From a virus: a DNA stretch of 31,147 nucleotides. Below, piece after piece: positions 197-8,274 of this stretch (positions are counted from its first letter, which is position 1; every line of letters begins with the position of its first letter). Position numbers and translations under genes: made by a program. The stretch lies in the UHGV virus genome UHGV-0038737, one strand, 5' to 3'. The notes beneath the pieces were generated by a model. The model did not search any database and was not told where the DNA came from. It saw only the letters and a program-made list of their open reading frames with translations.

Positions 197-745
197 TCAG
201 CTAGCTGGAAACTTTTTATACAGAGTTGAGAGCCCTACTCCATACGTTTTTGATACGCTTTGTCGTGATTCACCGGTTGCCATCCGCTCCCCCATTTCCC
301 GCCATTGCTCATCCGTGAACTTAGGCCTGCGACCACCAACTCGCCCTTTTGCCCTGGCTACGGCCAGCCCTGCTAAGGTACGTTCGCTATTAAGATCAGA
401 TTCATATTGTGCTGCGGAAAGGATGTTACGAAAGTTATAGCGGCCGCTGGCTGTTTTGAGATCCACGCCATCGGTAATACTGCGGAAGTTGATACCCTTT
501 TCCTGTAACTGCTGGAACATCAACAGCGCATGCAGAACGTTGCGGCCTATCCTGTCCAGCTTCCAGACCACCAGTTCATCCCCCGGCTGCATAGTGGCGA
601 TCAGCCGTTTTAGAACCGGCCGATTCGATTTCCTCCCGCTGGCATGCTCTTCAAAAATTTTCTCACAACCCGCTGACTTGAGCGCCGTTAGTTGCAATTC
701 AGTGTCCTGGTGGTTTGTTGATACTCGGGCATAACCGTAAATCAT
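197..745 (-). CDS. Serine recombinase, DNA invertase of the Hin/Gin/Cin/Pin family
   Basis: N-terminus MIYGYARVSTNHQDTELQ with catalytic-serine context, resolvase-type core and C-terminal HTH (GESRQSVSKTYGVGLSTLYKKF). ATG at 745 preceded by AGGAG; the six-frame ORF extends to 790 but the internal Met aligns with the family N-terminus. Confidence 0.9.
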   Translation of the reverse strand: MIYGYARVSTNHQDTELQLTALKSAGCEKIFEEHASGRKSNRPVLKRLIATMQPGDELVVWKLDRIGRNVLHALLMFQQLQEKGINFRSITDGVDLKTASGRYNFRNILSAAQYESDLNSERTLAGLAVARAKGRVGGRRPKFTDEQWREMGERMATGESRQSVSKTYGVGLSTLYKKFPAS

Positions 746-749
746 GGGA

Positions 750-776
750 TTTCTCCTGTTATGAAAACAGGAGAAA
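750..776 (-). promoter_or_regulatory. Stem-loop sequestering the invertase Shine-Dalgarno
   Basis: Perfect 11-bp inverted repeat TTTCTCCTGTT / AACAGGAGAAA with a 5-nt loop. On the minus-strand mRNA the AGGAG of the invertase RBS sits in the 3' arm, 4 nt before the ATG at 745. Confidence 0.4.
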
Positions 777-804
777 CGGCGAAGCATCACCAGATTTTTG
801 ATGG

Positions 805-1104
805 TTATAAAAAAGGTTGGTTTGGGAGGGATGGGGCAAACCTATAGCGCATCGCAAGATAACTCCTCAGAACCCTCCCCATGTTACGCAGGATCCAGTA
901 CCGGTTCTCGCTTTCGTTTGTCGTCTTATCGGCGAAGTCCGGCTGGTATCGCTCGATCCATGTATTTGCATCCGCCTGACTGAAATGCCAGTTCCTCTCC
1001 TGCAGTTCAGCGATGAACTTGTCTGTATGCAGACAGAGATAGCCCTTCGGGTTTTGCTGTATGGCCGCAATAAAAGCAGCACGAATATCCGGTTGACGAG
1101 GCAT
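805..1104 (-). CDS. Hypothetical 99-aa protein, divergent from the dinI-like gene and sharing its LexA box
   Basis: ORF MPRQPDIRAAFIAAIQQNPKGYLCLHTDKFIAELQERNWHF... with ATG at 1104 and GAGGG SD about 8 nt upstream. The LexA box lies 26 nt upstream. No family recognised. Confidence 0.5.
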   Translation of the reverse strand: MPRQPDIRAAFIAAIQQNPKGYLCLHTDKFIAELQERNWHFSQADANTWIERYQPDFADKTTNESENRYWILRNMGRVLRSYLAMRYRFAPSLPNQPFL

Positions 1105-1154: not shown

Positions 1155-1203
1155 TATGAAAACAGATCAAGCACAGGCAGTTTTCACTTATAAGAGGATC
1201 GGT

Positions 1204-1443
1204 ATGTTTGTTGAACTGGTTTATGACAAGCGAAATGTTGAGGGGCTCGAAGGGGCCAGGGAGATCATTCTGGCCGAACTGACGAAGCGGGTGCACCAGA
1301 TTTTCCCTGGTGCCGAAGTGAAGGTAAAGCCGATGCAGGCGAACGCGCTAAACAGCAACTGCACGAAAACAGAGAAAGAACGGCTTAATCGTATGCTTGA
1401 AGAGATGTTTGAAGAATCTGACATGTGGCTGGTTGCTGATTAA
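1204..1443 (+). CDS. dinI: DinI-family DNA-damage-inducible protein
   Basis: MFVELVYDKRNVEGLEGAREIILAELTKRVHQIFPGAEVKVKPMQANALN...EEMFEESDMWLVAD matches the DinI pattern as recalled. RBS AAGAGGA; LexA box 59 nt upstream. Only the last 80 codons of the long six-frame ORF 817-1443 are taken as real. Confidence 0.85.
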   Translation: MFVELVYDKRNVEGLEGAREIILAELTKRVHQIFPGAEVKVKPMQANALNSNCTKTEKERLNRMLEEMFEESDMWLVAD

Positions 1444-1500: not shown

Positions 1501-1914
1501 TCACGCTGCGGGTTTTTCAGGCCACTGAATATCTGGCACGGTGATATCCAGCGCGTTCAGCGCATCACTGTAACTCAACCAGGCATGCAGGGCTGCGGTT
1601 TCTGAATCACTCAGTTTCATGCCCACCAGGATTTTTGTCTGCCATACAGAAATAGTCGGAGCGATTTCTGACAGCAACAGCCGCCGTTGATTTTCTGCTA
1701 TCGCCAGCGGGTCCAGTTCTGGCAGTTGTTCAATACGCGGTCCTTTCTCGTCAAATATGCCCGCGAATCCATCGGGAGGATTAAAAAACGCCAGATAGTC
1801 AGCCTCGCTCATCTCTTGCAAGTCCGCAGGTAGTGAGCCAGCCGCTTCATACGCAGACAGCATACCGTTATCGAGGTAAAATCCCTGCGTGCTGATGCTG
1901 TAAAAATATTTCAT
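1501..1914 (-). CDS. tfa: Tail fibre assembly protein (Tfa chaperone)
   Basis: MKYFYSISTQGFYLDNGMLSAYEAAGSLPADLQEMSEADYLAFFNPP... is typical of lambdoid/Mu-type Tfa. Start ATG 1 nt after the tail fibre stop. Confidence 0.85.
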   Translation of the reverse strand: MKYFYSISTQGFYLDNGMLSAYEAAGSLPADLQEMSEADYLAFFNPPDGFAGIFDEKGPRIEQLPELDPLAIAENQRRLLLSEIAPTISVWQTKILVGMKLSDSETAALHAWLSYSDALNALDITVPDIQWPEKPAA

Positions 1915-1915
1915 A

Positions 1916-2797
1916 TCAATACCCCATCACTCTTATATGAAAAAAAGGGACCCAGCCTGTCTGAGGAGTTTTAACGCTGACGGTTAAATATGTTGTTAAT
2001 AGCCCACTGCCATTATCTTTATCTCTGCATGTTTTAACATCAGCATTGTATCCGGGGGTTTGATTTCCAAATCTGTCGCCTGAAATGGACGCAACGGCAG
2101 TAATAATGCCGTTAGGTAATGCGACGGGGAGCGGCACTTTATAGTAGTGCGTATAATACGTAATACCTCCCACTGTCTGAGGGTTGTATGCTCCTACTGC
2201 GATGACGCCACCTATGAGGAAATCCATTTGATAAATATCGCCAATTTTTATCACGCTGGAGTTTGTTCCTGACCTGACATAGGTGATACCCAGATTGGAC
2301 AGCGCGGCGTCTCTGGTTGTCGCCCCGGTCCCTCCCTGGTCAATACTCAATGCTGTACTTAGCCCTTTCAGCTCTGTGATATCGCTATTTGCCCCTTTCC
2401 GGGCGAGACCACCGATGGCAGGAATGCTGAGGCTGGTGCCGTTGATTGTCACAGTGACCAGTTGGTTCGCTGAGGTACTGGCGAACGTTTCCCACGCACC
2501 GATATTCTCGTCATACTCATTGATGAGCTGAGACATGGCCTGTGCCAGTCCATCAACCGAGATAATGTCTGATACCAGAATGCCGTACTTCTGGCCGCTC
2601 AGCGCCGGGGAAGCAGCTGGAGTAACCGTCATTGACGTGGCGCTGTTCACGGATGAAATCTGGAACAGCTGCACCGGGTTAGACATCACGATAATTGTCT
2701 GCCCAGCGCGAACCTGGCTGGCCGGTGCCGTCCAGTTTGTGCCCGTCCCGGTGGCGGTATTTCCATTAATGGCGATGGTGCCGGTGTTATAAAGCAT
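1916..2797 (-). CDS. Side tail fibre protein
   Basis: Contains the conserved fibre motif LSIDQGGTGATTRDAALSNLG and Gly/Thr/Ser-rich beta-type composition. ATG at 2797 with GGAG RBS (the ORF track starts at TTG 2812). A Tfa gene follows directly. Confidence 0.8.
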   Translation of the reverse strand: MLYNTGTIAINGNTATGTGTNWTAPASQVRAGQTIIVMSNPVQLFQISSVNSATSMTVTPAASPALSGQKYGILVSDIISVDGLAQAMSQLINEYDENIGAWETFASTSANQLVTVTINGTSLSIPAIGGLARKGANSDITELKGLSTALSIDQGGTGATTRDAALSNLGITYVRSGTNSSVIKIGDIYQMDFLIGGVIAVGAYNPQTVGGITYYTHYYKVPLPVALPNGIITAVASISGDRFGNQTPGYNADVKTCRDKDNGSGLLTTYLTVSVKTPQTGWVPFFHIRVMGY

Positions 2798-2812
2798 ATT
2801 TTCTCCAGGCAA

Positions 2813-2837
2813 TAAAAAAACCCCGCCGGAGCGAGGT
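2813..2837 (-). terminator. Rho-independent terminator downstream of the lipoprotein gene
   Basis: Minus-strand RNA CCUCGC-UCCG-GCGGGG (one G-U pair) followed by UUUUUUU, 20 nt after the lipoprotein stop. Confidence 0.55.
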
Positions 2838-2857
2838 TTATGTTTAAGCGTAGTGGG

Positions 2858-3091
2858 TTATTTGCAGGTTGTTTCGGTAAATGTATTCGCACTTACCCAG
2901 CGCCAGCTGAAAGGATATCCAGCCCGGTACTGCGTCTGGTTGTTTTGTTTACGCACACCGTAAATCTGAACCGTAGTTTCCTGACCGCCAACGATTGCAG
3001 TGCCGCTGCAAACTGGTTCCTGTTTCTCAATTACGCCAGCGCATCCTGTAAGCATGACAGCGCCTGCCATGCAGATAATCAGTTTTCTCAT
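2858..3091 (-). CDS. Small lipoprotein moron (77 aa), possibly Cor-like
   Basis: Signal peptide MRKLIICMAGAVMLTGC with lipobox LTG-C. Own terminator downstream and a separate AT-rich, repeat-rich upstream region. Embedded between tail genes. Confidence 0.6.
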   Translation of the reverse strand: MRKLIICMAGAVMLTGCAGVIEKQEPVCSGTAIVGGQETTVQIYGVRKQNNQTQYRAGYPFSWRWVSANTFTETTCK

Positions 3092-3202
3092 TTTGATAGT
3101 ATCCAGAGGAATTCAGTATCTTAGACGATACCAATACAATTCTGGTGGGTATAATTGATTGGATAGATCAATATTATGTTATTGATCGCTAAAAACGATC
3201 AA

Positions 3203-3877
3203 TCAATCATAGGCCGCTGTATTTATGGCGGTTAATGAAATGCCAGTATTCGTTCCCCCTCCAGGTGAACCTGCCCCAGTGGAGGTCCCCCCTGCGTTTA
3301 TCCTCGTATTGGCCCCGTCAAACCTGCATGAAGAATAAGCATTTATCGTGTAGATAGTCGGAGGCTGGGTTGAATTATTCACAATGATGGTCTGACCCAA
3401 CTGAGCAGGTGCAACGGCCCATGACCCGCTCAGCGTCTGGTCAATATTTATCCCGCCGTTTGCACCAGGCGTGCCAACCGTCTGCAGGTCTGATAGCACA
3501 CGGGACTCATTAGTTAACACAAGCTTTCCGCTCGCATCCCATATTGCCAAACCCCATTTCGGTAATATCTGCGGGAATATGGCAAAAACGTACGCCGTTA
3601 AAGTGAAACTTTGGTTGTAGGGATTAACACCAGCAACATACACATTACCGCCGTTCCTGTAAGACATAACCGGAGTGGGCTGTGCTGTATTGGTGGTTTT
3701 GATAAAAACCATCACTGGGTAATCAGCGTTTAAAGCGATATTTTGAGCAACCTGCTGAGAACTGCCATTCGCGGATGAATTGAAGGTATACTTCCCGTAA
3801 AGACAGAAAGGCGTTGATTGTGGCGTTACAAAGGGATTCCCGTTATCCATTAATATCATCGCGCCAAATTCGGCCAT
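3203..3877 (-). CDS. Hypothetical tail-region protein (224 aa)
   Basis: ORF translationally coupled to the upstream gene (TAATG overlap at 3877). Gly/Asn/Thr-rich beta-type composition, downstream of J. Function unknown. Confidence 0.6.
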   Translation of the reverse strand: MAEFGAMILMDNGNPFVTPQSTPFCLYGKYTFNSSANGSSQQVAQNIALNADYPVMVFIKTTNTAQPTPVMSYRNGGNVYVAGVNPYNQSFTLTAYVFAIFPQILPKWGLAIWDASGKLVLTNESRVLSDLQTVGTPGANGGINIDQTLSGSWAVAPAQLGQTIIVNNSTQPPTIYTINAYSSCRFDGANTRINAGGTSTGAGSPGGGTNTGISLTAINTAAYD

Positions 3878-4179
3878 TATGCTTTCTCCATGAAAACGAC
3901 CACCTCACATTTAGAGGCCGGGTAATTACCCAGGCCCAAAGAAGAGGCTGCGGTTACGGTTATTGTGTTCCCTGACGCGACAATGCTCCTCCCTACGCTG
4001 TTACCTCCTTCATCAAGTGAGAGCGCAAAACCGACCTTCATTCCTGAGGGTACAGTGAAAGACCAGCTGCCGGAGTTTTGTCCGGCGGCAAGTTGTATAC
4101 GTCCAACAACGGAAACGGGCTTGATTCCGTAGTTGTTGGGGTTTCCCGAAGCATCCCAGGTCTGTATTCCATAAGCCAT
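3877..4179 (-). CDS. Hypothetical tail-region protein (100 aa)
   Basis: ORF starting 2 nt after the J stop and overlapping the next gene start. Function unknown. Confidence 0.6.
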   Translation of the reverse strand: MAYGIQTWDASGNPNNYGIKPVSVVGRIQLAAGQNSGSWSFTVPSGMKVGFALSLDEGGNSVGRSIVASGNTITVTAASSLGLGNYPASKCEVVVFMEKA

Positions 4180-4180
4180 A

Positions 4181-7100
4181 TCAGAACACCCCCGTTAATC
4201 GGCCAACCTGCACTCTCAGAACGTTGTTGCCATCCTTGACGCTGATTGTCTGGTTGGTCTGCTTCATGGCTCCCTCCCCAGCTGTCGAACCGTAGTTCTC
4301 AAACGTCCCGGACTTATCCAGTTTCCAGCCAACAGAGCCGGCAACATAATTGTTCGACTGGATGTAATTGCCAATTTTTGCATTGCTTATGGTCCCGTCG
4401 CCAATGACTGTATCCCTGATAATGGCCTGGCCATTCTGGATAACGAACGGCAGTGTTACAGTCCCGCCGACCATAGTAGTCACGGCGAAACGGTCTGCCA
4501 GGAAGATTACCTGTGGCTGCATGCCGGAGGGTGTATTTTGAACCCCAATACCCATCCCGGCAGCGTAATACTGCCCGTTACTGGACACCCCCACCTTGAT
4601 GTTATACATCGCGCTGAGGTTACCGTTTACATCTGCTATAGCCTGTGCGTTGACGTTTATCGCTGCACTGTTTTCGCCTGATTTAACAGTCAGAGTGTTG
4701 ATTTTTGTTGCCGAAGCCTGGGTGAAATCAGCAAGAGTTTCTGTCAGGTCCGTTGAGTTAGAGATATTGCCACCAGCTTCTGCATCCAGTGTGACCAGCG
4801 CGCGTGCGACCGCCTGGCTGGTATCGGCAATCGTAGTATCCACTCTGTCTATACTGGCACTGTTCCCGGCGTTTGTTGCTGTCTGGGAACGACGACTGAC
4901 AACCTGCGCCAGCCCATTCTGGATTATCGCAATTGCCGAATTCTTCACGCCTCCTGTCATACCGTCCATTGAAACGGAAATCTCATCGATTTTTACCGCC
5001 GCCTGCGCCAGCCCGTCAGCGTTTTCCTGTATATCTTTCGCCTGCTGCTCCAGCTCGTCGGCATGGTTTTTGATTTCGTCAGCCATGCCAGCAATTTTTT
5101 CATTGCTGTCCACTGCGCTCTCAATCAGATCTTTAAACGTAGCGGAGTCTTTGATCTCCTCCAGGATCACATCGGTGATATCGGAAACATCGATGCTGGC
5201 CTGACCTCGCACCCAGTCGGTATACCCGGACTCGTTTCCCGTTCTGTCGACCAGTTGCGCGCGATACCAGAAAATCTGCCCTGCCTTAAGACCCATCTGC
5301 TGATATTTGCGCTGCGGATAAGGCACATCGGCCAGCAGCATTGCATCATCTTCGCTACCGGTCAGGCTGTACTGAATTTCCGTCTTCAGCGTGTCTTCGG
5401 TATTCGCCGGGAATCCCCAGTTCAGCTCGATACCGAATACCACGTTTTCAGAAGCGATGAAGCCAACCGGCTTCGGTGGGTTTCCCACTTTACCCGTCAA
5501 CGTTTTCTCTTCTGAATAGCCCCACCCAGATGAAATTTCGGCGGCATTGATGGCACGCACGCGAACCAGGTAGCGTCCTGCATAAATCCCCGGAACATCG
5601 AATGACGTGGTGGAGCTGCGCGGCACATTCACCCAGTTCCCGTCATTGCGACGCCACTGTGCCTCATACGCGATAGCATTTTTCGCCTGGTCCCAGCTGA
5701 CGCGCATGGTCTCAACGCTGATATTCTGCTGAACGACAGAAAACGAACTGATCGCGATATTAGCTGGCGGGGACTGATTACCGGGCGGAATTACACTTAT
5801 TGGCCGCTGGTCGATAATGGCACCGGTATCGATACGCGCATATTTATCCGGATCGTGCAAAGCGCCAGCAATCGAATACGTTCCGTCATTATTATCCGTA
5901 ACGCTGATAACGCGATATTGCTGCGCGTAAAGCTCTTCAGACTCGACAATCCACACCGATTCCACTGCAGGTGTTTCGCTGTATGCCGTTGTCACAGTGA
6001 CGGCCCGCCCGTTTACGCTCTGTATCGTCCTGCTCTGCGATGCGCCGGACGGAAGGTTAACCATCAGACGGCTTCCGGGAGCGGCTGCCGAATCACGATC
6101 AAGCGTGATAACGCGACCGTTAACCGCACTGATGCGCCCTCCCATCACCTTTCCGGATAACAGATCATCGGCAACCGCGATAATATAACCAGGCTGTGGA
6201 ATGTTGCCGTCCAGGCCAACATCAAACGATACGATGCGATCCTTGTTATTGGTCAGAATCCCCCAGCGTCCCTTACGGTTTGCCTCCGACTGCCGGGTAC
6301 AGCCAATGGCTGTCATTTCGAGCTGGTTTGTGCCAAACCGAGCGACGAGCTCCTGTTCAAAAACCGGCTCCATCGCATCTGCGTAGGCATTACCCGGATC
6401 AGACCAGGAAACCAGCGCAGTGGTATAGCGGTTTTTAATGGTGCTGCCAGAATAGGTAAAGCGGCCGTCAACCACGTTAGCGCGGGTGTAGCTGTAATCC
6501 ACATCACGGGGCATATCTGCCAGCGCAACGATTTGATCGCCGCCCCAGTACGTCATGCCACGGAATATGGCCGCAAAATCACGCAAAACGGTATACGCAT
6601 CATTCCTCTCCTGCACATAAACGTTGCACGTATAGCGGGGTTCTGTTCCGGTACCGCCTTTACCGTCGGGAACTGGCTGATCGCAATACTGCGCAACCTG
6701 GTAAAGTGTCCATTTATCAATATTTGCCGCCGTCAGGCGGTCGCCAAGTCCGAAACGGTCGCTCACCACCAGATCGTAAAAAATCCACGCCGGATTGTCC
6801 GTCCATGCCCACTTAAACGCCCCCGTCCAGGTGCCGCTATAGGTCCGGGTTTCCGGATCGTAAGTATCCGGCACGCGGATAACGCGTCCGCGCGGTTCAC
6901 AGGAAATTTGCGGGATGGAGCCGTTAAACTGGCTTGAGTCGAATTCGATGTACAGCAGCGCGGTATTTGGATAACGCAGTTTGGCGTCAATGACCTCTGT
7001 GTAGCTCTGCAGCGTCATCGTGTCGCCAATTTTCGCGCTGTTGGCATCCGCTGTTAGCTTACGCAGGCGCACCGTCCATGTGCTGCCTGCCTGCGGTAGG

Positions 7101-7683: not shown

Positions 7684-8274
7684 CTACTGCTGATCTTCGA
7701 CATAAATTCCGGCAGAAATAATTGCCCCGCCGATTCTCCGGCGGCCGTACAGGAGCGGAACCGGGTAACCCTGTGCGGCGGTATTTGTGACTCCGCCGAA
7801 CGCGTATGAGGCGCGGTTATCTGAGCTCTGTTTGCTGGCCAGCCCCGCTGGTTGAGGGGAAAGCATCTGAACAACCCCGCCAATCATCATTGCGGCACCG
7901 AATTTGTATAAGAATGGTGATGCCGCAGCCCAGGGTGTGAAATTAAGCACCGCCCCAACGGCAACCAGAACTGCACCAAGTATTGTCTGGAGTAATCCGG
8001 CCTTTTTGCTCCCGATAATCACCGGGACAATGCGAATGACATCGCCGGTGACCGGGTAACCCAGGTCATCAACACCAATATTCTTTTTCCCTTTGAATAC
8101 TGAATAAGTGAGACCACGGCGTTGGCTGGAAATCATAAACTGCTCAAAGCCCGGTATAGTCTTTGCCAGCGCAACACTCGCTTCGTTCACGCGGGAAATC
8201 AGGCGATGGTGAACTTTACCGAATGTTTTCCCGAGCACGCCGCCAAGCTCAATCCGGGTCATTACTTCCTGCAT
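7684..8274 (-). CDS. I: Tail assembly protein I
   Basis: MTRIELGGVLGKTFG... and the C-terminal hydrophobic Gly/Ala-rich region resemble lambda gpI. Alternative start at 8262 overlaps the K stop as TAATG. Confidence 0.85.
   Translation of the reverse strand: MQEVMTRIELGGVLGKTFGKVHHRLISRVNEASVALAKTIPGFEQFMISSQRRGLTYSVFKGKKNIGVDDLGYPVTGDVIRIVPVIIGSKKAGLLQTILGAVLVAVGAVLNFTPWAAASPFLYKFGAAMMIGGVVQMLSPQPAGLASKQSSDNRASYAFGGVTNTAAQGYPVPLLYGRRRIGGAIISAGIYVEDQQ

Follow-up and report, generated by a model that had tools for sequence, protein, structure and literature searches.

Introduction

The late operon of a lambdoid prophage of the N15/phi80/HK225/mEp237 type, encoded on the minus strand, contains a short reading frame whose product looks like a small lipoprotein. 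The question raised by this locus is which gene it is and what it would do for a cell that carries the prophage. An earlier note, made from the letters alone, had described the frame as a lipoprotein moron and put forward a Cor-like role in superinfection exclusion. The window analysed here, which as a whole is this lambdoid prophage, is the full stretch of 31,147 nucleotides of the virus genome UHGV-0038737.

The Cor proteins of HK022, N15 and phi80 inactivate FhuA and lower the uptake of ferrichrome (PMC3594210). Cor expressed from a prophage excludes FhuA-dependent phages of other immunity groups (PMC3594210; bioRxiv 10.64898/2026.03.26.714494). The mechanism by which Cor proteins functionally inactivate FhuA has not yet been elucidated (bioRxiv 10.64898/2026.03.26.714494). 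We identify the frame at 2858..3091 as cor of a phi80/HK225/N15-type lambdoid prophage, with a probability of about 0.95. The features discussed are collected in Table 1.

Table 1 Positions of the features in and around the cor cassette, numbered from the first letter of the window
Feature	Position	Strand	Basis
Hin/Pin-type DNA invertase	197..790	-	PHROG 125, E 2e-75
Conserved 99-aa protein	805..1104	-	PHROG 3893, E 2e-42
DinI-family protein	1201..1443	+	PHROG 189, E 8e-20
Tail fibre assembly gene	1501..1914		Pfam Caudo_TAP
Side tail fibre gene stf, 293 aa (short)	1916..2797		alignment to phi80 stf
Intrinsic terminator of the cor cassette; 9-bp stem, 4-nt loop, T7-A-TT tail	2811..2839	-	fold and identity to phi80
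cor CDS, 77 codons and stop, Cor precursor	2858..3091	-	ORF list, NF047972, PHROG 1119, identity to phi80 Cor
Mature Cor, 61 residues, ~6.8 kDa, predicted small beta-barrel fold	2861..3043	-	
Lipobox Cys-17 codon	3041..3043	-	sequence analysis
Lipoprotein signal peptide, residues 1-16, ending L-T-G	3044..3091	-	sequence analysis and phi80 FN582354 annotation
Candidate cor promoter, predicted	3117..3155	-	phi80 FN582354 features transferred by alignment
phi80 gp23 homologue, 224 aa	3203..3877	-	PHROG matches of the gp22/gp23 pair: 557 and 425
phi80 gp22 homologue, 100 aa	3877..4179	-	PHROG matches of the gp22/gp23 pair: 557 and 425
J-like tail tip gene, 1149 aa	4181..7630	-	
J C-terminal ~330 residues, receptor-binding end of phi80 (FhuA-dependent) type, putative functional partner of cor	4181..5173	-	identity to phi80 gp21
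I-like tail assembly gene, upstream of cor in the direction of transcription	7684..8274		

Identity of the gene

In the ORF list the translation begins MRKLIICMAGAVMLTGCAGV and the full 77-residue product reads MRKLIICMAGAVMLTGCAGVIEKQEPVCSGTAIVGGQETTVQIYGVRKQNNQTQYRAGYPFSWRWVSANTFTETTCK. This protein matches the NCBIfam equivalog NF047972, "phage exclusion lipoprotein Cor", with 140.9 bits (E 9e-42; the cut-off is 31 bits), residues 1-76 aligning with positions 1-76 of the 78 in the model. Among the PHROGs the match is to family 1119, "Cor superinfection exclusion protein" (E 7e-37). E-values of this order place the ORF beyond chance; it is a real gene. By tblastn every residue agrees with Cor of phi80, mEp043, mEp213 and HK225 (100% identity). 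The same search located a homologue in 242 phage records, among them HK022 (79% identity), Erwinia and Aeromonas phages (56-61%) and the lytic T1-like phages and Dhillonvirus (35-43%, with T1 Cor at ~37%). The coding DNA has no differences from phi80 or from HK225 and 50 from HK022; the ribosome binding site and the terminator are also identical to phi80, and a few base differences are found only upstream of about -25. The Cor-like nature proposed earlier, for which an alignment to Cor proteins had been named as the check, is upheld both by the NF047972 score and by full identity to the phi80 and HK225 proteins; the similarity is total, protein and coding DNA alike being identical to phi80.

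The phi80 record FN582354 describes its gene as a "moron gene" for a "conversion resistant protein Cor precursor" that "blocks TonB-dependent outer membrane FhuA receptor", and elsewhere as "lysogenic conversion lipoprotein cor". The features annotated there are a signal peptide, an acylated Cys, and a promoter and a terminator, both marked as putative. To call the gene a moron, as had been done from the letters, agrees with this record ("moron gene product", own promoter, own terminator).

The 390-bp cassette 2813..3202 is present at 99% identity or more in 40 of 5,426 complete E. coli genomes. Among the matches listed, which come from eight E. coli genomes, it is 100% identical, the upstream region included, and in all eight it bears the RefSeq name "cor: phage exclusion lipoprotein Cor". 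A search across 5.8 billion proteins gave 113 clusters, which are mostly from Escherichia, Enterobacter, Salmonella, Klebsiella and Rahnella, and many are already named Cor.

Pfam holds no Cor model and returned only DUF4223 and MiAMP1 below threshold (E ~0.03). Both were rejected, the DUF4223 match covering the N-terminal 29 residues only. The NCBIfam lipoproteins TraV, TssJ and BPTD_2524 were also rejected; they score far under their cut-offs and match mainly the N-terminus (residues 1-58 at most). Nothing counts against the identity as Cor. What the window carries here is the known cor gene in a form identical to the phi80 prototype, and the NCBI pipeline annotates it as a matter of routine; as a textbook moron it carries little weight as a discovery.

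The Cor precursor

The N-terminus of Cor comprises a basic n-region (MRK), a hydrophobic core and the lipobox Leu-14, Thr-15, Gly-16, Cys-17, with Ala at +2. These are the features of a type II (lipoprotein) signal peptide, with an outer-membrane sorting residue at +2. The sig_peptide and mat_peptide limits given for phi80 in FN582354 are the same as those of Cor in the window. The 77-residue lipoprotein with an LTG-C lipobox described in the earlier note is indeed encoded here, on the minus strand; position 2813, where that note began the feature, is the end of the terminator T-run.

Mature Cor contains two further cysteines, Cys-28 and Cys-76, which probably form a disulphide. In an alignment of 49 full-length Cor homologues Cys-17, Cys-28, Cys-76, Ile-43, Tyr-44, Gln-52, Gly-58, Pro-60 and Phe-61 are invariant, Gly-16 is nearly so, and Trp-63 and Trp-65 are at least 90% conserved. 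The traits of the family, a YRAGYPF / W-x-W core and the pair of mature cysteines, are all found in Cor of the window.

Terminator, promoter and spacer

The cassette has the downstream terminator of its own that had been claimed for it, a stem at 2839..2818 and a T-run placed directly after the cor stop. Five of the nine base pairs in the stem are GC pairs, and the 4-nt loop and closing strand are followed by seven T. The hairpin folds at -17.6 kcal/mol, with z = -2.5 relative to shuffled sequences. The sequence is that of the putative rho-independent stem-loop annotated in phi80 and of the terminator annotated in HK225.

Mapping the phi80 features onto the window predicts a cor promoter with an extended -10, TGGTATCGT, at 3133..3125, a weak -35 at 3155..3150 and a start near 3117. 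Two blocks upstream of cor, TTGGTAT and CAATTATACCCA, are kept in phi80, HK225 and HK022. A consensus scan picks a different candidate, TTGATC-18-CATAAT, at 3202..3173. Because the scan and the phi80 mapping disagree, the exact position of the promoter is unsettled.

The predicted -10 is one base off that of phi80 (TATCGT vs TATTGT), and one could imagine that through promoter decay cor is silent or non-functional in this prophage. We consider the chance of this to be very slight. The coding sequence, ribosome binding site and terminator are the same as in phi80, and the cassette together with its upstream region matches that of HK225, a viable phage. Moreover, the same 390 bp recur without a change in the eight E. 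coli matches listed, and at 99% or better in the 40 genomes. The same very low odds cover the idea that cor is aimed at a receptor other than FhuA, since two proteins of one and the same sequence must share their target when the host species is the same. We therefore retain the reading of an intact cor directed at FhuA.

The 111-bp spacer between the gp23 homologue and cor has 31.5% GC, compared with 52% for the window. We note that GATC sites are found at 3166, 3184 and 3197, in the segment 3161..3211; this makes three in 111 bp, where ~0.4 would be expected. Three TTGATC / GATCAAT elements just upstream of the cor promoter make up two overlapping perfect 8-bp inverted repeats, ATTGATCG/CGATCAAT and GATCAATA/TATTGATC, and a 12-nt imperfect inverted repeat is also present in this segment. 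The GATC array is conserved in phi80 and HK225 and in part in HK022. It is a long shot, but cor may not be simply constitutive and the array might serve as an operator, or as a switch that responds to Dam methylation, and in this way tune the level of Cor. Such a switch, if real, would balance phage resistance against the loss of ferrichrome uptake. Co-regulation of cor with fhuA by Fur was rejected, the Fur match being at chance level: the best Fur box upstream of cor agrees at 12 of 19 positions and is equalled by 33% of shuffles.

Gene neighbourhood and the J protein

The order J-gp22-gp23-cor-terminator-stf is common to the window, phi80 and HK225; in HK022, too, cor follows J. The gene order of HK225 is the same as that of the window down to attP. 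The position assigned to the lipoprotein in the earlier note, between tail-region ORFs and the tail fibre gene, is correct, with the gp22 and gp23 homologues upstream and stf downstream. Alignment to phi80 stf places the stf start at ATG 2797 rather than at TTG 2812 as in the ORF list.

PHROG names the products of the gp22/gp23 pair (3203..4179) "outer membrane protein" and "membrane associated protein". They gave no significant match in Pfam and none in NCBIfam, and by eye they have no evident signal peptide or hydrophobic segment. The PHROG names look unreliable; the two may be tail-tip accessory proteins.

Two antisense ORFs, 2840..3124 (+, 94 aa) and 2535..2792 (+, 85 aa), matched no PHROG family and on that ground were treated as non-coding shadows. 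The second, antisense to the stf start, is "gene 25, moron gene product" of phi80 in FN582354, a record that gives it its own promoter and a terminator overlapping that of cor. It is doubtful as a gene because no PHROG family matched it.

At the far end of the prophage the arrangement is that of HK225, with the 99-aa ORF separating the invertase from the tail fibre module. The invertase gene adjoins the attachment site, and some 700 bp lie between it and the tail fibre assembly gene. The similarity to HK225 runs out at ~57-60, a point that corresponds to the attP core annotated in the HK225 record, where a likeness to E. coli yciI is noted. Only the first ~57 bases are therefore host DNA, and the window opens at the junction of prophage and chromosome.

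The J-like protein is a clear recombinant with a junction near residue 800-830 (~5170-5230). Over residues 1-800 it shares 93-99% identity with HK225 and for the most part more than 90% with HK022, but only 45-60% with phi80. Identity to HK225 falls to 22-47% over residues 801-1100, and the last ~350 residues are ~90% identical to phi80 gp21 (85, 98, 84 and 94% in successive hundreds over 801-1149). Over its final 49 residues J is 94-100% identical to phi80, HK022 and HK225 alike. The phages phi80, HK022, N15 and mEp213 are FhuA-dependent (PMC10373560; PMC9311878). Since the C-terminus of J is of the phi80 type, the prophage in the window very probably uses FhuA as they do. As in the relatives, ~1 kb separates the receptor-binding end of J from cor, which lies downstream. 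With a J end of phi80 type and phi80 dependent on FhuA, the exclusion gene would therefore lie beside the receptor-binding end that matches it.

Proposed function

Published work has established the exclusion function for Cor of phi80, and since the two proteins are identical it should carry over to Cor of the window. We picture cor as a self-contained moron cassette inside the late tail operon, with a weak promoter and a terminator of its own; the predicted promoter would allow Cor to be made from the repressed prophage. The 77-residue precursor would be exported, lipidated on Cys-17 and cut by signal peptidase II. Under the standard Lol rule, Ala instead of Asp at +2 predicts that Cor is delivered to the outer membrane. 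Here the mature protein would inactivate the ferrichrome transporter FhuA, as is known for the identical protein of phi80. FhuA would be the receptor of this phage type as it is for T1, T5, phi80, N15 and HK022. With its receptor function inactivated by Cor, the lysogen would be closed to superinfection by FhuA-dependent phages of any immunity group, and the likely cost would be a lower uptake of ferrichrome.

A strain carrying this prophage is accordingly expected, from the sequence identity, to resist FhuA-dependent phages (T1, T5, phi80, N15, HK022 and mEp) and colicin M, and to be poor in the uptake of ferrichrome and albomycin. The presence of a cor prophage is relevant to the choice of therapeutic phages and to the interpretation of host range.

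The stf ATG is only 13 nt past the terminator T-run. For stf to be expressed, the antiterminated late transcript would therefore have to read through the terminator of cor, and with such read-through Cor would also be produced late in lytic growth. Cor made at this stage could protect progeny from FhuA in debris, by analogy with what has been proposed for Llp of phage T5. It is possible, though we doubt it, that this is the main role of Cor, the late protein blocking FhuA of the lysing cell and its debris and so sparing the progeny, and not protection of the lysogen. The location of cor inside the late tail operon, the read-through that stf would require and the same role proposed for T5 Llp are in keeping with such a lytic function. 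Strictly lytic T1-like phages and Dhillonvirus carry cor homologues, and the gene must therefore be useful without lysogeny. The phi80 gene, however, was defined by lysogenic conversion (FN582354), and the cassette has its own conserved promoter-like block upstream. A lytic role is, moreover, compatible with exclusion by prophage-expressed Cor and does not displace it. We thus keep protection of the lysogen as the principal function.

Structural model and the relation to Llp

An AlphaFold model of Cor was built from the 49-sequence alignment. The mean pLDDT is 83.7, rising above 90 for about residues 30-77, and five strands form a small barrel. A Foldseek search of BFVD with the model returned a Cor-type protein of Dhillonvirus (E 4e-6) and then a 75-residue protein of phage DT571/2 (E 6e-4), which we take to be a T5-like phage. 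The top 50 Foldseek matches in the PDB did not include Llp; only weak matches to small barrels of the Tudor/chromo/SH3-like kind were observed (E of at least 0.085), and these were rejected as homology, the resemblance being that of a generic fold. Sequence searches of all PDB chains, with the single sequence by phmmer and with the 49-sequence profile, gave nothing meaningful for Cor and no homology to Llp at E up to 10. The modelled barrel nevertheless has the same fold as T5 Llp.

It has been suggested that Cor proteins act like Llp (10.1101/2022.06.28.497910), and we regard this as the probable mechanism. Cor anchored in the periplasmic leaflet would bind the plug side of FhuA, and the extracellular loops of FhuA would in response be folded allosterically over the phage binding site. 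[quoted passage not shown] The work of Arguijo-Hernandez 2018, in the summary given in PMC9311878, describes Cor as needing or acting through other outer membrane proteins. The lack of a sequence link to Llp by phmmer or the 49-sequence profile, and of Llp among the Foldseek matches, is also in line with this alternative, which we judge unlikely. On the Llp-like mechanism, which we prefer, the present analysis adds modest value: the model offers an independent link between Cor and Llp at the level of fold, and this link lends support to the mechanism proposed for Cor.

Comparison with known systems

The closest known system is Cor of phi80 (UniProt P17651; CBH95076.1 in FN582354), which has the same protein, coding DNA, ribosome binding site, terminator and gene position. 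The 111-bp region upstream of cor differs by a few substitutions from phi80 and by none from HK225. The surrounding prophage is a different mosaic, the N-terminus of J and the head genes in the window being nearer to HK225, mEp237 and N15 than to phi80. Cor of HK022, N15, mEp167 and the T1-like phages has in common with Cor of the window the family, the length, the lipobox, the cysteine pair and the link to FhuA-dependent phages; the HK022 protein (79% identity) and those of T1-like phages and Dhillonvirus (about 35-43%) have diverged from it in sequence.

T5 Llp (PDB 8a60 chain B, 7qjf) is more remote, with 13% identity to Cor in the structural alignment and no match that is based on sequence. 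T5, which encodes Llp, is a lytic phage and expresses the protein early, and a periplasmic binding mode has been solved for Llp but for no Cor.

Among other morons, HK97 gp15 stops DNA entry at the inner membrane, and Lom and Bor are not known to be receptor blockers; as proteins and in their targets all three are unrelated to Cor. The likeness is one of organisation and of effect on the host: HK97 gp15 and lambda lom and bor are likewise self-standing cassettes of promoter, gene and terminator, placed inside the late operon or behind it, and like cor they alter the cell envelope of the lysogen (PMC3594210).
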